50,343 nt of DNA, taken from the IMG/VR virus record IMGVR_UViG_3300020042_010754, positions 1 to 50,343 of that record; one strand, given 5' to 3'. Source of the stretch: a virus. Lineage: Duplodnaviria; Caudoviricetes. Shown here in pieces: positions 21,976-42,853 of the stretch (the stretch's first letter is position 1; each line of letters opens with the position of its first letter). A model generated the notes under the pieces. That model saw nothing but the letters and a program-made list of their open reading frames with translations. It was not told the DNA's origin and did no database searches. A program made the translations under genes and the position numbers.

Positions 21976-22054
<79 letters not shown>

Positions 22055-23201: not shown

Positions 23202-23984
23202 GTGAAGAAATATCTAAATCCGTATGAATTAACAATCACATTGTTTTATGTCATGACTGTGATCAGTGTGTGCCTTATGTGGTACAATAATGATCTAGTT
23301 TGGTTACTTGCAGTTCCGGTTGCGGGCTGGGTTAATCATTTTTTCTTCAGTCTCAATCATAGAATGATTTCGCATCGTGCGTTTGAGGCCAGAAACAAAT
23401 TTATACACAACCTGATCATTGTGATGAACGTGTTCCAGGTCAGTCATAGTCCTTTGAGGTTTGCAATGGTACACCGACACCATCACAGTCATGCAGATGT
23501 TCCGGGATCGGATATACACGGCCCAACTCAAGGCTTTTGGGAATCAGTAGTTGGTTGGGAATACCACCTGGGTGAGAGTGTTAAACAGCACCGCATCAAG
23601 ATCCCTAAAGATCTACTCCGAGATAAATTTTTGGTATGGTTTGATACACATTACTACAAGATATTGATTTTGACATGTGTTGCGACATACCTGATTAGTT
23701 GGCAAGCATTTTGGTATGTGCTTGTGCCAGGTAGTGTCTGGTTTAAACTGTCAGCCAATTACCTTACAAATTATCACACATCGCATTTTGGGTATACAAA
23801 TCATGATATAGGAAAAGACACTGCAAAAAACAGTATCTTTGCCAATATTTTCAACTGCGGTGAAGGTTGGCACAATAACCATCATGCAAATCCTGGTGCT
23901 TGGAGATACGGGGAAAAATGGTGGGAGTGGGATCCACCCGGGTTTGTGATCAAGCATTTCTTAAAGAAAAGAATTGCTCAATAG
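23202..23984 (+). CDS. Membrane fatty-acid (delta-9-like) desaturase
   Basis: His boxes HRMISH, HRHHH, GEGWHNNHH. Confidence 0.9.
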   Translation: MKKYLNPYELTITLFYVMTVISVCLMWYNNDLVWLLAVPVAGWVNHFFFSLNHRMISHRAFEARNKFIHNLIIVMNVFQVSHSPLRFAMVHRHHHSHADVPGSDIHGPTQGFWESVVGWEYHLGESVKQHRIKIPKDLLRDKFLVWFDTHYYKILILTCVATYLISWQAFWYVLVPGSVWFKLSANYLTNYHTSHFGYTNHDIGKDTAKNSIFANIFNCGEGWHNNHHANPGAWRYGEKWWEWDPPGFVIKHFLKKRIAQ

Positions 23985-23987
23985 ATT

Positions 23988-24494
23988 TTAATCACTGCCC
24001 GGATAAGATAGCATAATTACCCATTCATCTGTGGGGAGCTTATTTTTAAAATACAGTTTATCAATCCATGCAATTCCAGAAAAAGTGCCTGGCGGTATTA
24101 TTTTGATCACTTGGTATTCTTTCATTTTGATATTGTGTGTTCTTGAATATTTGTACAGGGTTTTCATTATATGTGTTTTGGTTACTCTGAGAATTCTACA
24201 ATTGTTACGAATTGCATATTCTTGCAACTCTTTAAAACACTGAAACTTGATTTCCATGTTGGGGAAAGTGCGATCACTCATCCAATGACTTGCAATAATC
24301 AAATTGGGAGACTTTGTGAGGGTCAGTCGACATGTTGATACCAACCTTCCATCACTGTAGGTGCCAAATGTAGTATTTTCTACAAAAAAAGAATTGATTT
24401 GATCTTGACGTTCAAGGTGCGTGTATGCTGTGACGGTGTTTGCTCGTATAAACAGATCAAGCAAATCATCTAGGTGATCGTGGGTTAATATCAT
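23988..24494 (-). CDS. Hypothetical protein (possibly GNAT-like)
   Basis: 168-aa AT-rich ORF after a minus-strand TATAAATA at 24503-24510. Confidence 0.6.
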   Translation of the reverse strand: MILTHDHLDDLLDLFIRANTVTAYTHLERQDQINSFFVENTTFGTYSDGRLVSTCRLTLTKSPNLIIASHWMSDRTFPNMEIKFQCFKELQEYAIRNNCRILRVTKTHIMKTLYKYSRTHNIKMKEYQVIKIIPPGTFSGIAWIDKLYFKNKLPTDEWVIMLSYPGSD

Positions 24495-24590
24495 AGTGAA
24501 ATTATTTATAAGTTACCACCAGTGGTCAAAAAGGAAACATCGTGCAATTTACAGAAATCATCAAAACGGCTACTTTGATGGCCTTTTTTC

Positions 24591-24619
24591 TTGACTTTTT
24601 TGTTGTAGGCATATATACT
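24591..24619 (+). promoter_or_regulatory. sigma70 promoter of attenuator leader 1
   Basis: TTGACT-17-TATACT. Confidence 0.75.
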
Positions 24620-24624
24620 ACACT

Positions 24625-24717
24625 ATGATGACGCAAATTGCACTCACACTCAATCTAATACCTACCAGCCTGGAGCTGGCCTATGAGAGCGATCGTCGGC
24701 GGGGTCTTTGCCTGTAA
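24625..24717 (+). CDS. Putative leader peptide 1 (MMTQIALTLNLIPTSLELAYESDRRRGLCL)
   Basis: Leaderless ATGATG at the predicted TSS; overlaps the antiterminator arm. Confidence 0.6.
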   Translation: MMTQIALTLNLIPTSLELAYESDRRRGLCL

Positions 24718-24741
24718 GTAAACTTATTACTTCACTCAAAG

Positions 24742-24766
24742 ACCCGCTAACTAGGCGGGTTTTTTT
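24742..24766 (+). terminator. Intrinsic terminator with competing antiterminator
   Basis: ACCCGC/GCGGGT + T run; GGGTCTTTG (24702) pairs with CAAAGACCC (24737). Confidence 0.85.
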
Positions 24767-24773
24767 ATGGCGG

Positions 24774-24902
24774 TTGACCCTTATTCAGTCTGGTGCTATA
24801 ATGCATGCAACAAAGAGGAGAGCAGCAGGATTTGCAAAGACCCTAGAACAAACTGGGGCATTTGCAAAACCGGTTGACCAGTATTGCACAAGATGTTATA
24901 CT
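24774..24902 (+). promoter_or_regulatory. Tandem sigma70 promoters for the RNA island
   Basis: TTGACC-17-TATAAT (24774) and TTGACC-17-TATACT (24874). Confidence 0.75.
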
Positions 24903-24993
24903 AGAGACTAGTTAGAAAGCAGCACAGTGCATCGACACAGTGCAGCAAGTTCGTTAAAAATTTGATTATGGTGTACTCAGATTCAGTTCTGAG

Positions 24994-25242
24994 CACTATA
25001 TGTAAACACATTAGGGTTACCAAGCCAGTAGGTGACCTAGCAATGGATTCCAGTTGACGGACTGGCATTGGCTAGGTGACACGAAAGATGGGCGTATCAG
25101 TGATGCAAATCACGAGTTACGGTAGTCACGCTGGAACAACTTGACCTGTAATGTGCTTGATAGACAAGTCCGTGGACGGCACGGTAGGGCAGGTTCAAAA
25201 CTGCGATCTCTATCAAACACCCCTGTGTGTTTTCATATAGTG
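24994..25242 (+). ncRNA. Conserved-stem spacer RNA, copy A (about 200-nt multi-stem cargo)
   Basis: CACTATATGTAAACACATTAGGG...CCCTGTGTGTTTTCATATAGTG. Confidence 0.7.
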
Positions 25243-25316
25243 GAGCATTCGTCTATCGGTTAGGACAGTGGGTTTTCAGTCCACTAAGAGCGGTTCGACT
25301 CCGCTATGCTCTACCA
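25242..25316 (+). tRNA. tRNA-Glu (TTC)
   Basis: Cloverleaf, CCA. Confidence 0.92.
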
Positions 25317-25322
25317 TGTTTA

Positions 25323-25408
25323 GGACAGTTGGCCGAGTGGTCGAAGGCGACGGACTGTAAATCCGTTCTGTAAAAAGCGCAGTGGTTCAAATCCATTACT
25401 GTCCACCA
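25323..25408 (+). tRNA. tRNA-Tyr (GTA)
   Basis: Cloverleaf, long variable arm, CCA. Confidence 0.95.
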
Positions 25409-25413
25409 ATTTT

Positions 25414-25549
25414 GAAATCAAGTGGAAAGCAAGAGCCACAAAGTAAACAGTAGGCGACTTAGGTATCACGGTCGTCTTTGCAGTGATCAACTGCGTCAGC
25501 CCCAAAAAGGTTGAGAAACACTGGGGTAAGAGTCCCAAAGTGATTGCCA
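25414..25549 (+). ncRNA. tRNA-like multi-hairpin RNA ending in GCCA
   Basis: Five hairpins, including anticodon-like CAGCC-CCAAAAA-GGTTG and T-like TGGG-GTAAGAGT-CCCA. Confidence 0.5.
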
Positions 25550-25624
25550 TATACGAACACATTGAGAGACACATCCGCCGTAAAACGTGGAAGCATGGTG
25601 GTTATCCAGTGTGTTCTTATATGG
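25547..25624 (+). ncRNA. Conserved-stem spacer RNA, copy B
   Basis: CCATATACGAACACATTG...CAGTGTGTTCTTATATGG. Confidence 0.7.
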
Positions 25625-25794
25625 TATATCAGTTGATGTAGCGGGTCATACACGGGACTGGCGAAAGCATATTGAGGCTCGGAATCTCGGACGCTAACAA
25701 CACATCAGCACAAAGGTAGTTCGAACTACTCGGCGTGGTCGCAGTCTGTACTACGGACTTTCCTGCTCGATCCAGGGTGCTGATGGATATACCA
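25623..25794 (+). ncRNA. Unknown structured RNA closed by GGTATATC/GATATACC
   Basis: Terminal stem, T-loop-like GGTAGTTCGAACTACT, alternative internal pairings. Confidence 0.55.
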
Positions 25795-25914
25795 TATAGA
25801 AACACATTAATTGAAAAGCGTCCATGGACTAGAATGACCATCTAGTTAGATGCTTGGATAGGGATGTAAAAAGCCCCTGCTCGTCACAGTTGTCCTAGTG
25901 TGTTTCTATATGGT
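25791..25914 (+). ncRNA. Conserved-stem spacer RNA, copy C
   Basis: ACCATATAGAAACACATTA...TAGTGTGTTTCTATATGGT. Confidence 0.72.
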
Positions 25915-25961
25915 AATGTCATCGGCCGGTGGCATCCATTCTGGGGAGTAATTACCCTCAG

Positions 25962-26039
25962 GAACTCGCGGTCTTCTAGTGGTAAGAAAGCCTCGTTTAA
26001 GGGGCGAACGCAGGTTCGATTCCTGCCCGCAATGAGTTT
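25962..26039 (+). ncRNA. tRNA-like element without CCA (pseudo-tRNA or decoy)
   Basis: D arm TTCT-AGTGGTA-AGAA, 6-nt anticodon loop GTTTAA, perfect T arm GCAGG-TTCGATT-CCTGC, bulged acceptor. Confidence 0.6.
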
Positions 26040-26124
26040 GCTATATAAAAACACATTAGAAGCCTTCGTGACTGTAGGCAAGCAGGTCTCTAAGTCGTTT
26101 CCGACTAGTGTGTTTCTATATGGT
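26040..26124 (+). ncRNA. Conserved-stem spacer RNA, copy D
   Basis: GCTATATAAAAACACATTAG...CTAGTGTGTTTCTATATGGT. Confidence 0.72.
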
Positions 26125-26313
26125 AAGAATCCCGTTACTACTTTCGTTAAAGTAGCGTTTGACTAGCGATAGAGGTCCGGTGGCAGAAGACCGTTAGTGA
26201 GGAGAACCCTCTGAATCTGATAGGCAGTTCCCTCTGCACACAGACGTTAGAATAAAAGGGATGGACAGAGTAACTGCTCAATTAAGGGCTGGCGTGGAAC
26301 CCAGTAGCTTATC
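26122..26313 (+). ncRNA. Unknown structured RNA
   Basis: GGTAAG/CTTATC, ATCCC/GGGAT, CTACTTT/AAAGTAG and further hairpins; no credible ORF. Confidence 0.5.
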
Positions 26314-26320
26314 CTAATTT

Positions 26321-26396
26321 GGTCTTAAAGTGTTCATGGACGCACGACGGCTTGTCACGCCGTAAGAGTGGGGATCGTTACCCCCTAAGACCGCCA
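26321..26396 (+). tRNA. tRNA-Asp (GTC)
   Basis: Cloverleaf, atypical T loop ATCGTTA, CCA. Confidence 0.9.
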
Positions 26397-26460
26397 TATA
26401 AAACACATTAGTTCCCCGTAGGGATAATTGACAACAGGTTCATGCTAGTGTGTTTCTATG
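26395..26460 (+). ncRNA. Conserved-stem spacer RNA, copy E
   Basis: CATATAAAACACATTAG...CTAGTGTGTTTCTATG, exactly between tRNA-Asp and tRNA-Leu. Confidence 0.72.
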
Positions 26461-26535
26461 CCCCGGTGACGGAATGGTATACGTGTTGGTCTTAGAAACC
26501 AAATTCTGGGAGTTCGAGTCTCCCCTGGGGCACCA
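26460..26535 (+). tRNA. tRNA-Leu (TAG), short variable loop
   Basis: Cloverleaf, loop CTTAGAA, CCA. Confidence 0.9.
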
Positions 26536-26538
26536 AGT

Positions 26539-26758
26539 TTTGTTAGAGTGTTAGCAAGAGAAAGTCACGCTGTCTAGGTTTCTTCGAAGGACCAAAGCAG
26601 TAGAAGGTGATGGGTTCGACACCCACCCTGCGGGGAACTGCAGGGGTCCATTGAGGCGACTAAACTGGACCGGTATCCCAAGTAACTTACCGACTCCCGC
26701 TCGAGCTTGTTAATTCGGGTGAATGGCAGCAATAACGTGGTGCTGCTACTTTAACAAA
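26539..26758 (+). ncRNA. Unknown multi-stem RNA
   Basis: TTTGTTAGAGT/ACTTTAACAAA closing stem; internal GGGTTCGACACCC, GGTCCA/TGGACC, CGGTA/TACCG. Confidence 0.6.
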
Positions 26759-26769
26759 TTCAATATTTT

Positions 26770-26929
26770 ATTTTTATAGTCAAGCATCAATAAAGGTATC
26801 GTGACGGGACGCTGCCACTATGCGGGCCTAACTGTGCGAGGAACAGGTCCTGATATAACTGCTATTCGCTTGTCAGAGGAAGCACCTTTGTTGACAAATT
26901 GGCATCTCTTGATGCTTGACTATAAAAAT
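26770..26929 (+). ncRNA. Unknown RNA closed by a perfect 21-bp stem
   Basis: ATTTTTATAGTCAAGCATCAA/TTGATGCTTGACTATAAAAAT. Confidence 0.65.
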
Positions 26930-26933
26930 TTTT

Positions 26934-27023
26934 GCCAGCGAGACTTGGAGTCCGAGGGGTCTTATATGCCCTTTCCGCCAGATTAGCGGCTTTGAGAGAG
27001 TTCGATTCTCTCCGCTGGTACCA
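26934..27023 (+). tRNA. Atypical tRNA-Ile (TAT) with long variable arm and reduced D arm
   Basis: GCCAGCG/CGCTGGT, loop CTTATAT, T arm GAGAG-TTCGATT-CTCTC, ACCA. Confidence 0.8.
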
Positions 27024-27026
27024 GTT

Positions 27027-27197
27027 TAAGCAGATCATGTGGCGGAAAAACTCATTGACGATGGGCCCAACTGCCAGGGACAACGACACAATCCTGAACC
27101 GCTGACGTTGAAAAATACGAGACTGCTAGTCACAGTCGACTCATGTTCGGGAAGGTGGCAACACCTTTAAACGCAGGGCAGTCACATGATCAGCTTA
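27027..27197 (+). ncRNA. Unknown structured RNA
   Basis: TAAGC-A-GATCATGTGGC/GTCACATGATC-A-GCTTA closing stem; CCTGAAC/GTTCGGG. Confidence 0.55.
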
Positions 27198-27208
27198 TTC
27201 AAACTCAG

Positions 27209-27248
27209 TTGACAACAACCCAACGTTGTTGTACACTACACATAAATA
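27209..27248 (+). promoter_or_regulatory. sigma70 promoter plus CATAAATA late box
   Basis: TTGACA-17-TACACT. Confidence 0.7.
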
Positions 27249-27254
27249 ACATAT

Positions 27255-27330
27255 CGCGGGAAGGGTCCGGTCACCGGCAGGGTCTCATAAGCCTTTGCAA
27301 TCCTTGGTTCAAATCCAAGTCCCGCAACCA
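27255..27330 (+). tRNA. tRNA-fMet-like (CAT)
   Basis: C1:A72 mismatch, CGCGGG start, TTCAAAT T loop, reduced D arm. Confidence 0.82.
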
Positions 27331-27339
27331 AACACATCC

Positions 27340-27960
27340 ATGGTACCCAAAGTAATCAGAATTACACCAGTAGAATCCTATTTTTCAATTACCTGGGCAA
27401 TAACCAACAAGTGCAATTATGATTGCATGTATTGCCCTGCTGCATTGCATGCAGGGGATCAAGTGTACTCACTGAGCAAGATGCAATCCTACTGGTTGGA
27501 TATTTTTGCCAAGACTCAAGATAAAAATTTAAAATACAAAATTTCGTTCAGTGGCGGCGAAGTCACTACCAACAAAGACTTTGCGCCATTTGTTGCATGG
27601 TTGCGTGAAAACTACCATGATCGCATACATTCTATATTGTTAACTACCAATGGTAGTGCCAGCGTGGCCTACTACATGAAGTTGTACCACAGTGTAGACA
27701 ACATAAGTTTTAGTTTTCACAGTGAACATGCTGATGAAAAACTATTTTATGATAAAATGGTCAAGATCAAGGAAGCCATTGATCCTAAAAATTTCATTCA
27801 TGTAAACATCATGGACGAATACTGGATCAAGGATCGTATTCCTTTGTATACTAAAATTCTAACTGACCATGAGATCAGTCATAGCATTAATTCAATAAAT
27901 TATGCCTTAGGAACACGGACTGTTCCTATTCTTAAAGGTCGGGCTAATCTTGAAATTTGA
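27340..27960 (+). CDS. Radical SAM protein
   Basis: CNYDCMYC, SGGE, TTNGS, SFH. Confidence 0.88.
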   Translation: MVPKVIRITPVESYFSITWAITNKCNYDCMYCPAALHAGDQVYSLSKMQSYWLDIFAKTQDKNLKYKISFSGGEVTTNKDFAPFVAWLRENYHDRIHSILLTTNGSASVAYYMKLYHSVDNISFSFHSEHADEKLFYDKMVKIKEAIDPKNFIHVNIMDEYWIKDRIPLYTKILTDHEISHSINSINYALGTRTVPILKGRANLEI

Positions 27961-28258
27961 AAACCATCACAACAACAATTGCACAATTTTGCTAGACAAC
28001 GGTGACCAGTATCAGATATATGCCAATTGGTTGCACAATCACAATCTAGATAATTTTAAAGGCTGGCAATGTGCTGCAGGAATCACACGAATCTCTATTG
28101 ATCCTACTGGACAAGTGTTCAGTGGCGAATGCGAAAATCACAATTTAGGTAACTTGAATACCAATTGGCAGTTGTTGGAAGAATCAGTTGCTGTTTGCAA
28201 CCGAGACCGGTGCACTGGTTGCACTGACGACTTACTTGCCAAAAAAATTAAATTATGA
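27950..28258 (+). CDS. Stand-alone SPASM/twitch-like Fe-S domain protein
   Basis: CAAG...I...GQV..GEC....LGNL...C...RCTGCTDD. Confidence 0.7.
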   Translation: MKFENHHNNNCTILLDNGDQYQIYANWLHNHNLDNFKGWQCAAGITRISIDPTGQVFSGECENHNLGNLNTNWQLLEESVAVCNRDRCTGCTDDLLAKKIKL

Positions 28259-28352
28259 ACTTGCTTGGCAGCTCAACCGTAGACGAGCTGAGATCCGGGG
28301 GTTTGGAATTTTTTTGTCGGTGGCATAAATAACTTGCAACAAAATTTAGTGG

Positions 28353-28381
28353 TTGACAACAATCACTAAATACCTTATAAT
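28353..28381 (+). promoter_or_regulatory. Consensus sigma70 promoter of attenuator leader 2
   Basis: TTGACA-17-TATAAT with CTAAATA inside. Confidence 0.85.
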
Positions 28382-28387
28382 ACAAAC

Positions 28388-28519
28388 ATGATGAACACAA
28401 ACACTTTTAACCGCATGCATTCCGTACCGACCTTGGCACAGCCCTGGTCACGTGCCTTTGCCTGCGGCAAAAGTATTACAGGGAATCATAGGGTCCGAGA
28501 AGGAATCAGTTGCGCCTAA
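28388..28519 (+). CDS. Putative leader peptide 2 (MMNTNTFNRMHSVPTLAQPWSRAFACGKSITGNHRVREGISCA)
   Basis: Leaderless ATGATG at the predicted TSS; overlaps the antiterminator. Confidence 0.6.
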   Translation: MMNTNTFNRMHSVPTLAQPWSRAFACGKSITGNHRVREGISCA

Positions 28520-28544
28520 CAGCAGTAACTTACAAACTTCAAGG

Positions 28545-28577
28545 ACCCTGGAACTAAAAACTCCAGGGTTTTTCTTT
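28545..28577 (+). terminator. Intrinsic terminator with competing antiterminator
   Basis: ACCCTGGA/TCCAGGGT + TTTTCTTT; AGGGTCC (28490) pairs with GGACCCT (28543). Confidence 0.85.
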
Positions 28578-28585
28578 ATGTGCAA

Positions 28586-28720
28586 TGAGTAACGAGGACT
28601 CAGCCAGCACAATAAACCAGGCAAACGGGCGGACAGGACACATGAACGTGTGGCGATAACACACTAGTAAGACTCCTGGTCGGGGTATCAACCCCGTCAT
28701 GTTCAGTAGCGATACTGGGC
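28586..28720 (+). ncRNA. Unknown structured RNA after attenuator 2
   Basis: GAGT/ACTC, CAGGA/TCCTG or ACCAGG/CCTGGT, GTGT/ACAC, CGGGG/CCCCG, TTCAGT/ACTGGG stems. Confidence 0.5.
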
Positions 28721-28780
28721 ATTCTAAAACATATCAAGCTGGCCTGGGTTGCAATACCGCAGATGGTGTGTTTTAGAATG
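28720..28780 (+). ncRNA. Conserved-stem spacer RNA, copy F (divergent)
   Basis: CATTCTAAAACATAT...GTGTGTTTTAGAATG with compensatory changes. Confidence 0.62.
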
Positions 28781-28853
28781 TATCCATAGTGTAATGGCAG
28801 CATCGCGGTCTCCAAAACCGTCAGTCTAGGTTCAAGTCCTAGTGGGTACGCCA
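28780..28853 (+). tRNA. tRNA-Trp (CCA)
   Basis: Cloverleaf, loop CTCCAAA. Confidence 0.93.
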
Positions 28854-28858
28854 AATAT

Positions 28859-28935
28859 CGGTCCTTAACTCAATTGAATAGAGTGCCAGTCTTCGAAACT
28901 GGAAGTTGGGAGTTTGAATCTCTCAGGGCCGGCCA
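28859..28935 (+). tRNA. tRNA-Arg (TCG)
   Basis: Cloverleaf, loop CTTCGAA. Confidence 0.92.
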
Positions 28936-28942
28936 AATTATC

Positions 28943-29016
28943 GGGGGATTAGTATAATGGGATTACGGCAGCTTTGCAAGCTGTTTATGGGAGTTCGATC
29001 CTCCCATCCTCCACCA
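28943..29016 (+). tRNA. tRNA-Ala (TGC)
   Basis: Cloverleaf, G3:U70. Confidence 0.95.
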
Positions 29017-29023
29017 AATTTAC

Positions 29024-29097
29024 TGGGGGTTAGTGTAGCGGTAACACTACAGACTTTGACTCTGTCATCACTGGTTCGATCCCAGTACCCTCTGCCA
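29024..29097 (+). tRNA. tRNA-Gln (TTG)
   Basis: Cloverleaf, loop CTTTGAC. Confidence 0.93.
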
Positions 29098-29104
29098 GAC
29101 AAAT

Positions 29105-29178
29105 ACCACGTTAGCTCAAAGGTAGAGCAATCGGCTGATAACCGATAGACACAGGATCGTTACCTGTACATGGTACCA
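29105..29178 (+). tRNA. tRNA-Ile (GAT)
   Basis: Cloverleaf, atypical T loop ATCGTTA. Confidence 0.9.
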
Positions 29179-29184
29179 AATTGT

Positions 29185-29214
29185 GTTGACACTGTGTGTC
29201 AACTGCTATATAAT
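29185..29214 (+). promoter_or_regulatory. sigma70 promoter overlapped by a palindrome
   Basis: TTGACA-17-TATAAT; GTTGACAC-TGT-GTGTCAAC. Confidence 0.75.
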
Positions 29215-29230
29215 AGCATTGTTAGTTTCA

Positions 29231-29320
29231 GGAACGGTCCCATAATGGTATTGGAGCGGATTGCTAATCCGTCGAGTGGTGAAAGCCGCTTTAAGAGTTC
29301 GAGTCTCTTTCGTTCCGCCA
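29231..29320 (+). tRNA. tRNA-Ser (GCT)
   Basis: Cloverleaf, long variable arm. Confidence 0.94.
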
Positions 29321-29328
29321 AGTTTTAT

Positions 29329-29404
29329 TCCTCAGTAGCACAGCGGTAGTTGCACTTGACTGTTAATCAAGGTGTCGGTAGTTCGATCCTACCCTGAGGA
29401 GCCA
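29329..29404 (+). tRNA. tRNA-Asn (GTT)
   Basis: Cloverleaf. Confidence 0.94.
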
Positions 29405-29410
29405 ATTTTT

Positions 29411-29484
29411 GCCCTACTAGTACAATGGCAGTACACTGGTTTTGTAATCCTGTGATGGCAGTTCGATTCTGTCGTGGGGCACCA
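29411..29484 (+). tRNA. tRNA-Thr (TGT)
   Basis: Cloverleaf; two U:U mismatches in the anticodon stem. Confidence 0.85.
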
Positions 29485-29487
29485 TTT

Positions 29488-30252
29488 TTATCCCGCAGTA
29501 GTGCGTTGATTATTGTGCATTAATAATTTTTCAACAATTACGGCACCCAGATCAAATCTTGTACCTCCAGAGAATGAATAGTTTGTTTGATCTTCGTGAT
29601 GATTTTTATGCAAACCTTCCCCGTAAGATATAAAATTAAATACTGAGTTCAAGTTCCTGGCTTCAACAACTTCATTCTTTTTGTGGGTGTTATAGTTCAC
29701 AGCAGTAATAATTATCCAGCTATACGCAAAATTTACTGGAGAAAAAAACAATGCTGTTTTCAAGTCAATCAACGCCAATATTATATTGAAAGCGTAGAAC
29801 AACTTCCAGTAGTGTTTGCTAACAAATACAGCTTCTTTATTTTTGAAAAAATCCTTGGGAATCTTGATTCCCGAATTGATAGTATACCTGCCCAGCCACA
29901 AACTAAACCAACTATGATACATAGGGCTGTGTGGATCATTTTTTGTGTCAGTATGTGCATGATGCAAACGATGTGCAATCACTATTTGTAATGGACTGCC
30001 GTGACCGTTCATTACCATGCCAGTAAGCATGAGATATTTTCCAAAAATACTGGGCTTAAAACTGTTGTGACAAAGCCACCGGTGAGATCCAATGTGCGCT
30101 ATACCGCCCATCAAAGACCCAATGACTCTGATTAGGATAAATCCTAGCAGTGTTCCGCCTGCCGAAAAATAATAAGGTATTGAAAAAACAGCAATGGCGC
30201 TGAATACTAGAACTTTCAAAGTTACAGTGTCGGTGTAGGATAATTTGAACAT
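29488..30252 (-). CDS. Membrane fatty-acid desaturase
   Basis: HRWLCH, HRLHH, GEGLHKNHH. Confidence 0.9.
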   Translation of the reverse strand: MFKLSYTDTVTLKVLVFSAIAVFSIPYYFSAGGTLLGFILIRVIGSLMGGIAHIGSHRWLCHNSFKPSIFGKYLMLTGMVMNGHGSPLQIVIAHRLHHAHTDTKNDPHSPMYHSWFSLWLGRYTINSGIKIPKDFFKNKEAVFVSKHYWKLFYAFNIILALIDLKTALFFSPVNFAYSWIIITAVNYNTHKKNEVVEARNLNSVFNFISYGEGLHKNHHEDQTNYSFSGGTRFDLGAVIVEKLLMHNNQRTTAG

Positions 30253-30298
30253 AACTGTATTTAATCAATGTTATTGACTCAATATTGTTAATCAACAG

Positions 30299-30327
30299 TT
30301 GACAACATTCTGAAATTGTTGTACAAT
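30299..30327 (+). promoter_or_regulatory. sigma70 promoter of the Lys tRNA group
   Basis: TTGACA-17-TACAAT. Confidence 0.8.
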
Positions 30328-30352
30328 ACAAACTTAAACAAAAAGGTACTAT

Positions 30353-30376
30353 ATGAAGCGACCAGCTAAACTGTAG
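30353..30376 (+). CDS. Putative mini leader peptide MKRPAKL
   Basis: AAAGGT RBS; AAG and AAA Lys codons; hairpin starts at the stop codon. Confidence 0.45.
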   Translation: MKRPAKL

Positions 30377-30436
30377 TGTCAATCTAGATCCCATGTAGGT
30401 CCGGGTTGGCACGTGAAAGACAATTTTACATATCAA

Positions 30437-30511
30437 CCCTCTAAGATGTTAAGGCAGCATGCCGGACTCTTAATCCGTGACGTCCGAGTTCAAATCTCGG
30501 TGGAGGGACCA
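30437..30511 (+). tRNA. tRNA-Lys (CTT)
   Basis: Cloverleaf, loop CTCTTAA. Confidence 0.9.
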
Positions 30512-30515
30512 CAAT

Positions 30516-30589
30516 GGGATCGTAACTTAAAAGTAAAGTAGCTGGCTTTTAACCAGTAAAAGAAGGGGCAGTACCTTCCGGTCCTACCA
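30516..30589 (+). tRNA. tRNA-Lys (TTT), atypical D and T loops
   Basis: Loop CTTTTAA; T loop GGCAGTA; no GG in D loop. Confidence 0.85.
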
Positions 30590-30664
30590 TAGATAAACAC
30601 ATTGGGATTAAATTCTGGTCACCCCAGCGCATAAGAGGTTGCGTACAGTGTGTTTTTCTATGGT
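30586..30664 (+). ncRNA. Conserved-stem spacer RNA, copy G
   Basis: ACCATAGATAAACACATTG...CAGTGTGTTTTTCTATGGT between tRNA-Lys and tRNA-His. Confidence 0.7.
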
Positions 30665-30738
30665 GTAGTTAGTGTCAGCGGTTAGCACTACGGATTGTGA
30701 TTCCGTCAGCATGGATTCGAATTCCATACTATACCCCA
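30662..30738 (+). tRNA. tRNA-His (GTG)
   Basis: Cloverleaf, G-1:C73. Confidence 0.93.
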
Positions 30739-30744
30739 GAATCA

Positions 30745-30819
30745 GGTTGTGTGGCGTAGACGGATGCGCACCGGCTTCATAAGCCGAGGAGGAAGGATCG
30801 ATACCTTCCACAACCACCA
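30745..30819 (+). tRNA. tRNA-Met (CAT), elongator-like
   Basis: Cloverleaf, T loop ATCGATA. Confidence 0.88.
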
Positions 30820-30998
30820 GTTAAATATTTTTAATGAAAGTCATTGCTGTTTTGATGTTGTTGAAAAACTTCATGGTCAATTTGAAATTGTCAATGTCAA
30901 ACACAAGAATATAAAAAGTGTGTTCTTTGCTCATGGACAAGTGGATTAATAATCCAGTCTTGGTGATAGCATTGTAAATATACATGAACGTATTTAAT

Positions 30999-31072
30999 GC
31001 GGGGTTCGTATAGTGGTAATACCTTAGCCTTCCAAGCTAAAGCGAGGAGTTCGATTCTCCTACCCCGCTCCA
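30999..31072 (+). tRNA. tRNA-Gly (TCC)
   Basis: Cloverleaf, U73. Confidence 0.95.
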
Positions 31073-31078
31073 CATTTT

Positions 31079-31153
31079 GCATCCTTAGCTCAGGGGTAGA
31101 GCGTTTCCTTTACACGGAAAGGGTCCGCGGTTCGAAACCGTGAGGATGTACCA
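31079..31153 (+). tRNA. tRNA-Val (TAC)
   Basis: Cloverleaf. Confidence 0.94.
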
Positions 31154-31156
31154 AGT

Positions 31157-31279
31157 TTTGTAGCCATAGCCCGGAGCTAGGGTAAAGGGTGTTGCGGGGA
31201 TTGCATGCGCTGCCTGTATCATGTGAACCGATAAAGATCGTAGCGCAACTTAATCAGTTTTTGTTCGGCCTGCTACAAA
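31157..31279 (+). ncRNA. Unknown rod-like RNA with central bubble
   Basis: TTTGTAGC/GCTACAAA outer stem, GTTGCG/CGCAAC inner stem. Confidence 0.5.
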
Positions 31280-31288
31280 TTCAATTTT

Positions 31289-31362
31289 CTCAGTATGGTG
31301 AAATGGTATCACTCTTGGTTTGGGACCAAGGAGCGTAGGTTCGATTCCTGCTACCGAGACCA
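31289..31362 (+). tRNA. tRNA-Pro (TGG)
   Basis: Cloverleaf. Confidence 0.92.
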
Positions 31363-31368
31363 AGTTAT

Positions 31369-31446
31369 GCACAGGTGGCGGAGCGGCCCAACGCAAGGGA
31401 TTGCAAATCCCTAACACCGTGAGTTCAAATCTCACCCTGTGCTCCA
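31369..31446 (+). tRNA. tRNA-Cys (GCA)
   Basis: Cloverleaf, U73. Confidence 0.92.
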
Positions 31447-31461
31447 GAATAGAAAGTGCCT

Positions 31462-31713
31462 ATGTGGGAATATGTCGTAACCTTTTTTGCTGTGTTCTTC
31501 ACAGATATCTTTTACACTTACTACCTAAAAGCAGTACAAGATGAACGTGCAATGGCTGCTAGTTTGTGGGCCACCGTGGTGTTCCTGGTGGCCTGCGTGG
31601 CAGTGATCAACTACACCACAAATTCATGGTTGCTGATTCCAGCCGGTGCAGGTGCATTTTTAGGCACCTGGGTGGGCATGCAATTGAGACGTAACAAAAA
31701 TAATGGAAGATGA
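31462..31713 (+). CDS. Small multi-TM membrane protein
   Basis: Three hydrophobic segments; stop overlaps the tRNA-Ser 5' end. Confidence 0.7.
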   Translation: MWEYVVTFFAVFFTDIFYTYYLKAVQDERAMAASLWATVVFLVACVAVINYTTNSWLLIPAGAGAFLGTWVGMQLRRNKNNGR

Positions 31714-31796
31714 TGCAGCGGGGATGGTCCTGCGACTGGCCTTGAAAACCAGGTTCTGAGAAATTGGATGGGGTTCGACTCCTCCGTCTTCCGCCA
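31705..31796 (+). tRNA. tRNA-Ser (TGA), enlarged D arm
   Basis: Loop CTTGAAA, long variable arm, GCCA. Confidence 0.88.
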
Positions 31797-31803
31797 ACAA
31801 TAT

Positions 31804-31879
31804 GCAACTTTAGCTGATGTGGTCATAGCGGTGCCCTGAAGAGGCATTGAAGCAGGTTCGATTCCTGCAGGTTGCACCA
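31804..31879 (+). tRNA. tRNA-Phe (GAA)
   Basis: Cloverleaf, loop CTGAAGA. Confidence 0.92.
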
Positions 31880-31885
31880 GTCTAA

Positions 31886-31960
31886 GTCTCCATAGTTCAA
31901 GGGATAGAACACGTTCCTCCTAAGAATGAAATACAGGTTCGAGTCCTGTTGGAGACGCCA
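31886..31960 (+). tRNA. tRNA-Arg (CCT)
   Basis: Cloverleaf. Confidence 0.93.
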
Positions 31961-32006
31961 ACCTCTCCCTGACATACGGAGTACAATGTGATAAGTTGTA
32001 TGTTTT

Positions 32007-32080
32007 GGGTCATTAGCTCAAAGGCAGAGCGCTAGGTCGACATCCTAGACACAGCGGTTCGATACCGTTATGACCTACCA
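32007..32080 (+). tRNA. tRNA-Val (GAC)
   Basis: Cloverleaf, loop TCGACAT (C33). Confidence 0.88.
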
Positions 32081-32161
32081 GCCCCAGTAGACAAATTGGC
32101 AAAGTCGTCTCTCTCAAAAGGAGAAATTTTAATGCGGGTTCGACTCCCGCCTGGGGCACCA
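32081..32161 (+). tRNA. tRNA-Leu (CAA), shortened variable region
   Basis: Loop CTCAAAA, CCA. Confidence 0.9.
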
Positions 32162-32202
32162 TTAACAAAACTGTAATAATTTTTGAGTTAAATAGAAAGC
32201 AA

Positions 32203-32676
32203 ATGATGAAAAAACTAAACATTGACCTGGTGGCAGAATTTATCCGGGCTCAAACTCCCGAAACAAAAATATATCTCGGCTGTGATAGTGAACGTGTCAA
32301 AATAGATGGCGTCTGGCATGCTGACTATGTGCTGGCTATTGTGGTGCATATCAATGGCAACAACGGCTGCAAACTGTTTGGAGAAGTACACCGCGAACGC
32401 GACTATGACTCTAAACCTGGCAAACCTGCCATGCGACTCATGACAGAAGTCTACAAGGTAAGTGAGCTGTATCTCAAACTGGCCGAAGTGCTGGAAGGCC
32501 GAGCGGTTGAAGTACACCTAGACATCAACCCCAACGAAATGCACGGTTCAAGTTGTGTGATTTCACAAGCAATTGGCTACATCAAAGGCACATGTAATGT
32601 GGTTCCTTTTGTCAAGCCCGAAGCTTTTGCTGCCAGCTATGCTGCTGACCGTTTCAGGTCACTCCAAGTAGCTTGA
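32203..32676 (+). CDS. RNase H-like YkuK/DUF458 family protein
   Basis: IYLGCDS, RLMTEV, EVHLDIN, KPEAFAASYAAD. Confidence 0.85.
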   Translation: MMKKLNIDLVAEFIRAQTPETKIYLGCDSERVKIDGVWHADYVLAIVVHINGNNGCKLFGEVHRERDYDSKPGKPAMRLMTEVYKVSELYLKLAEVLEGRAVEVHLDINPNEMHGSSCVISQAIGYIKGTCNVVPFVKPEAFAASYAADRFRSLQVA

Positions 32677-32683
32677 TAATTTT

Positions 32684-32757
32684 GCGTGGTTAGTTTAATG
32701 GTAAAATATAACGTTGCCAACGTTTTGTCAAGGGTTCGATTCCCTTACCCCGCACCA
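32684..32757 (+). tRNA. tRNA-Gly (GCC)
   Basis: Cloverleaf; A73 discriminator. Confidence 0.88.
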
Positions 32758-32767
32758 TAAAAACACG

Positions 32768-32827
32768 GCCCAGCCCTCTGGCACATGACCTCTTTTAATG
32801 TTGTGTGCTACGGCTGGGTTTTTCTTT
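32768..32827 (+). terminator. Long hairpin with U tract
   Basis: CCCAGCC...GGCTGGG + TTTTTCTTT, inner GGCACAT/GTGTGCT. Confidence 0.6.
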
Positions 32828-32828
32828 G

Positions 32829-32902
32829 GCTCTTATAGTATAACGGCAATACACGTCCTTGGTAAGGACGAGCACCAAGTTCGATTCTTGGTAAGAGCAC
32901 CA
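32829..32902 (+). tRNA. tRNA-Thr (GGT)
   Basis: Cloverleaf. Confidence 0.92.
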
Positions 32903-42804: not shown

Positions 42805-42853
42805 AACAACAAGGGCTGTGATGGCCCTTGTTTCTTATCACAAGGATCCGAGC

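Follow-up and report, generated by a model that had tools for sequence, protein, structure and literature searches.

The window, as we call the whole 50,343-nt stretch of DNA analysed here, carries 30 tRNA genes and a permuted tmRNA according to ARAGORN; Rfam adds an extra tRNA at 30516 and assigns the tmRNA to a betaproteobacterial family. QueD, QueE, GTP cyclohydrolase, radical SAM and HNH genes are among its PHROGs matches. For one protein encoded within the tRNA region, 539 relatives occur in viral contigs, of which some are 340-364 kb long. The source is probably a large uncultured phage of Betaproteobacteria.

Two of the tRNA blocks, A and B, each lie behind a short leader element that ends in an intrinsic terminator (Table 1). 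A scan of the 50 kb for strong plus-strand hairpins followed by a T tract returned three sites, of which two are terminators A and B and the third, at 42810, has a weak T tract. A Met/Arg/Leu tRNA block at 21976 has no leader element. Two further tRNA calls depended on the method: a Met-CAT tRNA (27245-27321) was called only at a relaxed ARAGORN threshold, and the tRNA at 30516-30586, with a TTT anticodon loop, was detected by Rfam alone. Two His-rich membrane ORFs (23202-23984 and 29488-30252, both PHROG 35201), which we take to resemble fatty-acid desaturases, flank or interrupt the tRNA region, one of them inside block B on the opposite strand.

Table 1. Features of the two leader elements, their tRNA blocks and the candidate elements in cultured phages
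Feature	Position	Strand	Description and basis
Promoter of leader A	24591..24619	+	Sigma-70-type, TTGACT-17-TATACT; same spacing in relatives
Leader ORF A	24625..24717	+	30 codons (MMTQIALTLNLIPTSLELAYESDRRRGLCL); in frame with the arm in relatives
Antiterminator A	24702..24745	+	GGGTCTTTG 24702-24710 with CAAAGACCC 24737-24745; folding, -19.9 kcal/mol
Intrinsic terminator A	24742..24766	+	ACCCGC 24742-24747 / GCGGGT 24755-24760, then T6; -11.1 kcal/mol
Two bypass promoters	24774..24802 and 24874..24902	+	TTGACC class; consensus matches
tRNA block A	25242..27023	+	tRNA calls; stem-closed non-coding units between genes
Block A genes	25242, 25323, 25965, 26321, 26460, 26934		Glu-TTC, Tyr-GTA, odd tRNA-like, Asp-GTC, Leu-TAG, Ile-TAT
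Promoter of leader B	28353..28381	+	Perfect consensus TTGACA-17-TATAAT; ATG 6 nt past the -10 box
Leader ORF B	28388..28519	+	43 codons (MMNTNTFNRMHSVPTLAQPWSRAFACGKSITGNHRVREGISCA); codons 2-32 encode 17 amino acids
Antiterminator B	within 28490..28577	+	AGGGTCC 28490-28496 / GGACCCT 28543-28549; -24.7 kcal/mol
Terminator B	to 28577	+	CCCTGGA/TCCAGGG 28546-28568 and T tract; -13.6 kcal/mol
tRNA block B	28780..32902	+	Trp, Arg, Ala, Gln, Ile, Ser, Asn, Thr, Lys, His, Met, Gly, Val, Pro, Cys, Phe, Leu
Internal promoters of block B	29186 and 30299	+	
Unannotated leader element, BUDD (ON758385)	L482:6792-6975		After CATAAATA motif, not a sigma-70 promoter
Unannotated leader element, X1 (OQ427096)	L486:2563-2745		After CATAAATA motif, not a sigma-70 promoter

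Element A and its tRNA block

The first-pass annotation had described a promoter, a leaderless 30-codon ORF, an antiterminator and an overlapping terminator at the head of block A, and all four lie where it had placed them. The ATG begins 5 nt past the -10 box, which predicts a leaderless transcript, and CTA, CTG, ATA, GAG, TAT and GAT all stand in frame in the leader, as had been claimed. The zone within which a stall would permit read-through closes with Tyr20-Glu21-Ser22-Asp23. Inside the antiterminator an inner helix pairs AAGTAA (24716-24721) with TTACTT (24727-24732), and the terminator overlaps the 3' arm. The fold of the element has a z score of -2.5, with 3 of 200 shuffles equally good. 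Rfam gave a weak Trp_leader match (RF00513) at 24691-24768 (28 bits, E=0.01; the gathering score of 41 was not reached); at gathering level the window contained no Trp_leader-type match. A T-box was likewise found neither at gathering level in the window nor at E<=1 in 24500-28800.

The tRNAs behind leader A had been given as exactly Glu, Tyr, Asp, Leu-TAG and Ile-TAT. These five are present, but they are accompanied by a sixth, tRNA-like gene (25965-26034) with a 6-nt anticodon loop, GTTTAA, which ARAGORN calls Lys or Stop and which scores 31.9 bits against the Rfam tRNA model; the leader has no Lys codon. Contigs of two RNA runs cover this gene without mismatch, and our guess is that it represents a degenerate or nuclease-evading Lys tRNA. 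Taking leader A by itself, 22 codons drawn from the codon usage of this phage would give the five-codon match with a probability of about 0.028; the case is carried by the comparative data given below.

Several features of block A and of the tRNA region around it are recorded here in their own right. The tRNA-Leu(TAG) (26460-26535) is without the long variable arm usual for Leu, and the tRNA-Ile(TAT) (26934-27023) has a long variable arm and a weak tRNA-Sec score; the charging identity of both is uncertain. Non-coding units occur between the tRNAs at 24994-25242, 25545-25630, 25786-25920, 26040-26125, 26398-26460, 26770-26929, 27028-27195 and 30588-30664. Most are closed by a common long stem, AAACACATT...AGTGTGTTT, resembling processing stems around small RNAs; they matched no Rfam family in the stretch searched, and two of them recur in 12 and 19 of 80 relatives. 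A structured non-coding segment with a tRNA-like GGTTCGA arm (26545-26740) recurs in 11 of 80 relatives, and contigs resembling it have the highest summed depth in the lake RNA runs, to which other organisms may contribute. Between the bypass promoters lies a small hairpin unit (24809-24872) with a second copy of CAAAGACCC, the 3' partner strand of antiterminator A; similar units occur in L004, L007 and L055.

Element B heads the main tRNA array

A second element of the same design heads the main tRNA array (28353-28577). The 17 amino acids encoded by codons 2-32 of leader B, the 31 codons before the antiterminator, are exactly the 17 of the block B tRNAs. Absent from this leader are Asp, Glu and Tyr, and the tRNAs for those three sit behind leader A. 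Together they make up 16.6% of phage codons, and 31 codons with none of the three would be expected about 0.4% of the time. The internal promoters at 27209, 29186 and 30299 have operator-like inverted repeats across the -35 box and spacer (ACAACAAC...GTTGTTGT, for example), and a second layer of control at these promoters is possible.

Predicted switching by ribosome position

The elements were folded at equilibrium under ribosome masks extending 5-7 nt beyond the A site. Antiterminator A is predicted to beat terminator A unless its 5' arm is covered (antitermination probability 1.00). For leader A, the modelled terminator probability stays near 0 while the ribosome is stalled anywhere in codons 2-22, reaches 0.2-0.4 at Asp23 and is 0.9 once the ribosome has advanced to codon 24-25 or any later position up to the stop codon. 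Antiterminator and terminator are predicted to be mutually exclusive: a ribosome at the stop codon would cover the arm and let the terminator form, and one held upstream of about Asp23 in A, or Gly32 in B, would leave the arm free for the antiterminator and give read-through. The folding model agrees here with the earlier proposal that arrival at the stop terminates and stalling reads through, for stalls up to about Asp23.

Without a ribosome, leader A has a terminator probability of 0.00 and is antiterminated, with no predicted 1:2 protector hairpin; for leader B the value is about 0.5. Across the surveyed elements, which had been selected for an arm near the stop codon, the terminator wins in the untranslated state in only 3 of 10 type A and 49 of 116 type B cases. 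An untranslated leader A reads through in the model, so general translation arrest would open element A too. These predictions speak for a general gauge of translation speed or coupling, in which any stall or failed initiation gives read-through and the identity of the codons is secondary; we return to it with the codon data.

Survey of relatives

Relatives were gathered by motif scans (two of these gave at least 119 and at least 120 loci, with full flanks for 80 in each case) and by a protein-anchored scan (best 80 of 539), giving at least 451 loci. With the window included, the detector returned at least 136 elements with 127 distinct peptides, 10 of type A, 116 of type B and 1 other; one false detector match (L097) was dropped from the set. 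An unbiased check used those protein-anchored loci that had 2.8 kb or more of upstream DNA; here the detector placed an element within 2.6 kb of 22 of 29 tRNA-Trp genes and 6 of 17 tRNA-Glu genes. By eye, the remaining seven tRNA-Trp cases all have an element, some farther off or without a consensus promoter, and among the tRNA-Glu cases nine more have an element and two have none.

Several short-armed type A elements had escaped the detector, so type A was recounted with looser rules. This gave 34 terminators before tRNA-Glu, 28 of them with a leaderless ORF. Four belong to a clade (L038, L052, L056, L100) in which an Asp/Glu/Tyr block follows a plain terminator with neither leader nor arm, and two have the arm and no ORF by the rules used. 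Promoter and ATG are 5-10 nt apart across the elements. The peptides vary widely in sequence and length, and their amino-acid content follows the tRNAs.

A bacterial origin was considered and rejected. A GTDB scan with one motif only, that of terminator B, gave 29 matches, 26 of them without a leaderless ORF or downstream tRNA; the other three are phage-type leaders in metagenome bins, with a tRNA array in view in two. Those bins (L452, L453, L464) are labelled Haliscomenobacter and Flavobacteriales, and the contigs are probably mis-binned phage. In L015, L046 and L064, ARAGORN calls tRNAs with a CTA anticodon, amber suppressor-like, in or near the arrays.

Leader content follows tRNA content

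For type B, the matching was examined in 33 distinct leaders (window and protein-anchored loci), kept only if Trp was present. Of 97 amino acids absent from these leaders, 84 are also without a downstream tRNA, compared with a mean of 56.7 and a maximum of 71 after shuffling (p=0.0002). The off-frame control gave p=0.10 and 0.97 for frames +1 and +2, and grouping into 21, 12 and 6 clusters gave p=0.0005, 0.0005 and 0.004. The sets match exactly in 12 of the 33 leaders; of 106 amino acids for which no tRNA follows, 22 nevertheless occur in the leader. Lineage-specific absent sets match the tRNAs as well: ADEY in L033, CDEY in L018, DE in L021 and F in L082. At the other extreme, three leaders heading a single merged array use all 20 amino acids, and merged-array leaders L083, L092, L093 and L095 use 19-20 (MQTNVLHSISNCSAKQAGFVPSIWFAINSMSYDRTPE, for example).

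In 81 elements with enough downstream DNA, 236 of 241 amino acids of the first three tRNAs occur in the stall-permissive zone. With one element per cluster the fraction is 0.96-0.97 against 0.77-0.80 after shuffling (with 47, 25 or 21 clusters p is about 0.001), and for the whole zone within type B p<=0.006. Other frames are null for the first three tRNAs; when five tRNAs were considered, several tests gave p=0.02-0.05 for frame +1. Upstream of the first internal promoter the matching is 0.91 and downstream of it 0.86, both against an expected 0.78-0.79. Sensor codons number about one per amino acid in most cases, with no tandem runs.

Type A leaders hold 110 of the 112 amino acids of their blocks, and at codon level 109 against 91.7 after shuffling (p=0.0002); in 6 of the 28 leaders the script did not locate the arm, and there the whole ORF was counted. 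The conservation of ORF, codons and stems and the permutation test, both of which the first-pass annotation had put forward as checks, thus came out in its favour for types A and B, with shuffled and off-frame controls.

Genomes with both elements allow a comparison within one phage. In seven such genomes the leaders match their own block for 40 of 41 amino acids and the other block for 17 of 41. When Cys, His and Arg, or Tyr tRNAs stand in block A, the B leader is mostly without these amino acids and the A leader has them (L018, CEREYD; L037, HDYTRE). When tRNA-Tyr stands in block B, Tyr is lost from the A leaders of L023, L027 and L192 and kept in L106. Tests on trees give weaker results. 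On the tRNA-gene tree (69 of 72 elements), 7.1 of 10 independent pairs for Tyr go in the same direction and 0 in the opposite one (p=0.016); on the element tree only three pairs remain, 1.1 same and 0.1 opposite. Summed over amino acids, the pairs come to 18.6/2.7 in frame against 16.7/10.3 and 19.1/20.1 off frame on the tRNA-gene tree, and to 10.7/2.3 against 13/6.9 and 12/10.5 on the element tree, where few pairs are left and independent events are therefore few. Fisher tests on single amino acids, which are underpowered, gave p<0.05 for Trp only among 19.

A general gauge leaves these patterns unexplained: the absent amino acids mirror the absent tRNAs, the two leaders of one genome differ according to their own blocks, and in B leaders without downstream Asp and Glu tRNAs, Asp codons are absent in 26 of 27 and Glu codons in 27 of 27. 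The near-absence of Asp and Glu fits a gauge that tests only what is repairable. In favour of the less specific reading, B leaders use 16.1 distinct amino acids, only a little more than the 14.6 of phage proteins. We consider it improbable that codon identity is secondary; a general gauge probably operates beside the codon-specific response.

At the level of isoacceptors the agreement is looser. Coverage is 531 of 667 by readable codon, compared with 517.8 (maximum 540) for synonymous redraws, and some isoacceptors are rarely or never sampled: Arg-TCG 0/20, Lys-CTT 0/11, Arg-CCT 0/6, Gly-TCC 4/27 and Val-TAC 15/29. Matching is mostly per amino acid and only partial for isoacceptors. The earlier proposal is sustained in part: anatomy, conservation, coding constraint on the leader and codon match agree with an attenuator, and cleavage of host tRNA is one possible signal beside tRNA shortage from any cause and generally slow translation. 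To a ribosome, an uncharged and a missing tRNA are indistinguishable. The looseness would also suit an amino-acid starvation sensor, a leader that responds to charging and adjusts tRNA production to the nutrition of the host and not to tRNA loss; charging is the signal of classical attenuators (PMC3082878). We regard this as highly improbable. Extra tRNA would not relieve a lack of amino acid, and type A leaders track isoacceptors, albeit in related sequences: ATA occurs in 7 of 7 leaders with Ile-TAT and 8 of 15 without, and CTA or CTG in 9 of 9 with Leu-TAG and 5 of 17 without.

Coding constraint and stem covariation

In 45 disjoint pairs, indel lengths divisible by three make up 15 of 17 from the ATG to the Trp codon and 19 of 28 from there to the stop, but 5 of 38 beyond it; in the promoter the figure is 8 of 14. 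A cruder count without this regional split gave 11 of 32 and no frame bias. Of 276 single-base codon changes in the leaders 120 are synonymous, and third codon positions change most (201, against 139 and 144). These patterns indicate that the leaders are short ORFs under coding constraint, as expected of translated sequence. Arm and foot covary at two positions (of 135 pairs, C:G 85 and T:A 32 at one, C:G 75 and T:A 40 at the other), the commonest pairs being GGGTCTT/AAGACCC (24), GGGTCCT/AGGACCC (20) and GGGTTCT/AGAACCC (19).

Trp is in frame in 116 of 116 B leaders. Its flanking bases are variable, the distance from its codon to the arm ranges over 22-67 nt and a tRNA-Trp lies downstream in 33 of 33 cases, and for these reasons a sensor codon would be a simpler explanation than a pure RNA-pairing element or an arrest motif of the kind known from SecM and TnaC. 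A nascent-peptide role is possible.

Bypass promoters and RNA contigs

The caution that the promoters at 24774 and 24874 could bypass element A was well founded, both being real consensus matches of a class (TTGACC) that also precedes protein genes of the window. A promoter between terminator and first tRNA is kept in 8 of 9 type A and found in 8 of 72 type B elements, and further promoters lie inside the tRNA arrays. Since type A so regularly keeps its bypass, element A most probably supplements basal transcription and does not turn its block on from nothing. On another reading the terminators are ordinary insulators of the tRNA blocks, preceded by a gene for a small peptide or its relic, and downstream promoters drive the tRNAs. 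This would suit type A, the clade with the same terminator type and no leader, and the terminator motif at simple ends of bacterial genes (26 of the 29 GTDB matches), but it is very improbable: 64 of 72 B elements have no such promoter, arm and foot covary, and the peptides change in sequence and length while their amino-acid content tracks the tRNAs.

RNA data came from 20 runs, all as assembled contigs with small word shares; four runs were compared with 24400-29600 and four with leader B. One contig, in run X2, spans 28408-28570 and stops in terminator B, and others run through; a contig of run X15, whose type is not on record, likewise ends at 28573. Strand, ends and level are unreadable from contigs, which are evidence neither for nor against termination.

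Discussion

We propose, with good confidence, that the two elements are codon-matched, ribosome-coupled attenuators, in which a stall for lack of a sampled aminoacyl-tRNA lets transcription into the block that supplies it. Anatomy, conservation, coding constraint and covariation with tRNA content come from sequence and comparison, the switch comes from folding, and the feedback is what we infer. A shortage of working aminoacyl-tRNA would stall the ribosome in the leader and cause the block to be transcribed; the new tRNAs would restore ribosome passage and close the switch, so that the element would act as a negative-feedback gauge of working tRNA during infection. Each leader would test only what its own block can restore, and read-through into block A would come on top of what the bypass promoters transcribe. 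The shortage could be caused by anticodon nucleases, by decay of the host pool or by the demand of the phage itself. A stronger version is possible but falls somewhat short of probable: a block-by-block audit of the host tRNA pool by large phages, in which the leader of each array tests all restorable amino acids and is rewritten as tRNA genes move between arrays, and in which cleavage of any tRNA by an anti-phage nuclease switches on its replacements.

Leader-peptide attenuators of amino-acid operons include trpL, hisL, thrL and ilvL. In E. coli the pheST attenuator, with leader pheM, likewise uses a leader peptide to couple the supply of charged tRNA back to a part of the translation machinery; it senses one amino acid and its target is a synthetase, whereas here the product is tRNA itself, for a whole block. 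The attenuators of amino-acid operons, such as pheL (PMC3082878), likewise have a short translated ORF over an antiterminator arm, a competing terminator and read-through upon stalling, which is predicted here. They differ in that phage tRNA genes and non-coding units, and no enzymes for the sensed amino acid, lie downstream here; 5 to 20 amino acids are sampled with about one codon each, in place of runs for one to three; and the transcript is predicted to be leaderless, with no 1:2 protector predicted for type A, so that its untranslated state would read through. The phage elements would work like a classical leader-peptide attenuator and stand outside the amino-acid operon family on target and codon runs.

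Other systems share single features with them. Mycobacterial polycysteine sORF attenuators (10.1101/834739) are likewise leaderless short ORFs serving as stall sensors at the 5' end of an operon, but they carry cysteine runs and control access to a ribosome-binding site, whereas an intrinsic terminator is controlled here. The Anabaena trn operon is likewise a tRNA array induced by translational stress; its abstract describes a protein repressor, TrcR, acting at initiation, and does not mention codon matching (PMC10272220). Phage tRNAs are reported to overcome tRNA-cleaving defences, with rescue that needed strong tRNA expression (PMC11555353, PMC10264068). These reports give a reason for replacement tRNAs, and the control they describe is a strong promoter. 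The main texts of these two papers, and of PMC13015707 as far as available, contain neither 'attenuat' nor 'leader'. A full-text literature search, in which subscription journals are largely missing, returned no account of leader-peptide attenuation of tRNA genes, phage or bacterial, among the papers listed; genome papers of large phages may mention such leaders in their supplements.

Among cultured phages, blastn with 24560-26600 matched tRNA genes only, among the matches listed. Of five cultured phage regions reached through a neighbouring protein, only that of Xanthomonas phage BUDD has a candidate; the stretches of nt-1 and BUCT-ZZ01 stop short of the array heads. Both BUDD and Xanthomonas phage X1 have an ORF of 39 codons heading their tRNA arrays, along with a terminator and an arm of similar kind. 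The ORFs use 18 (BUDD) and 19 (X1) distinct amino acids. In the model the BUDD element terminates both without translation and with a ribosome at the stop, and some internal codons give windows of read-through. Neither ORF contains Cys, although tRNA-Cys is the second gene, and the BUDD ORF also has no Ile; these elements are for that reason only a candidate counterpart of the attenuators.

Why phages carry tRNA genes has been debated for about 50 years (PMC10264068), with codon compensation, decay of the host pool and defence nucleases as the reasons put forward. Attenuation of enzymes, which senses one to three amino acids, would here be joined by attenuation of tRNA genes, which covers nearly all twenty. 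A part of 150-200 nt that signals when any of 17 tRNAs is lost would make a convenient screen for defence systems directed at tRNA. If the block-by-block audit is true, it would amount to a defence-triggered counter-defence needing no protein sensor. A conserved stall-linked switch would mean that phage tRNAs are made on demand, and the stress that opens the terminator would be the stress that the phage is built to answer.
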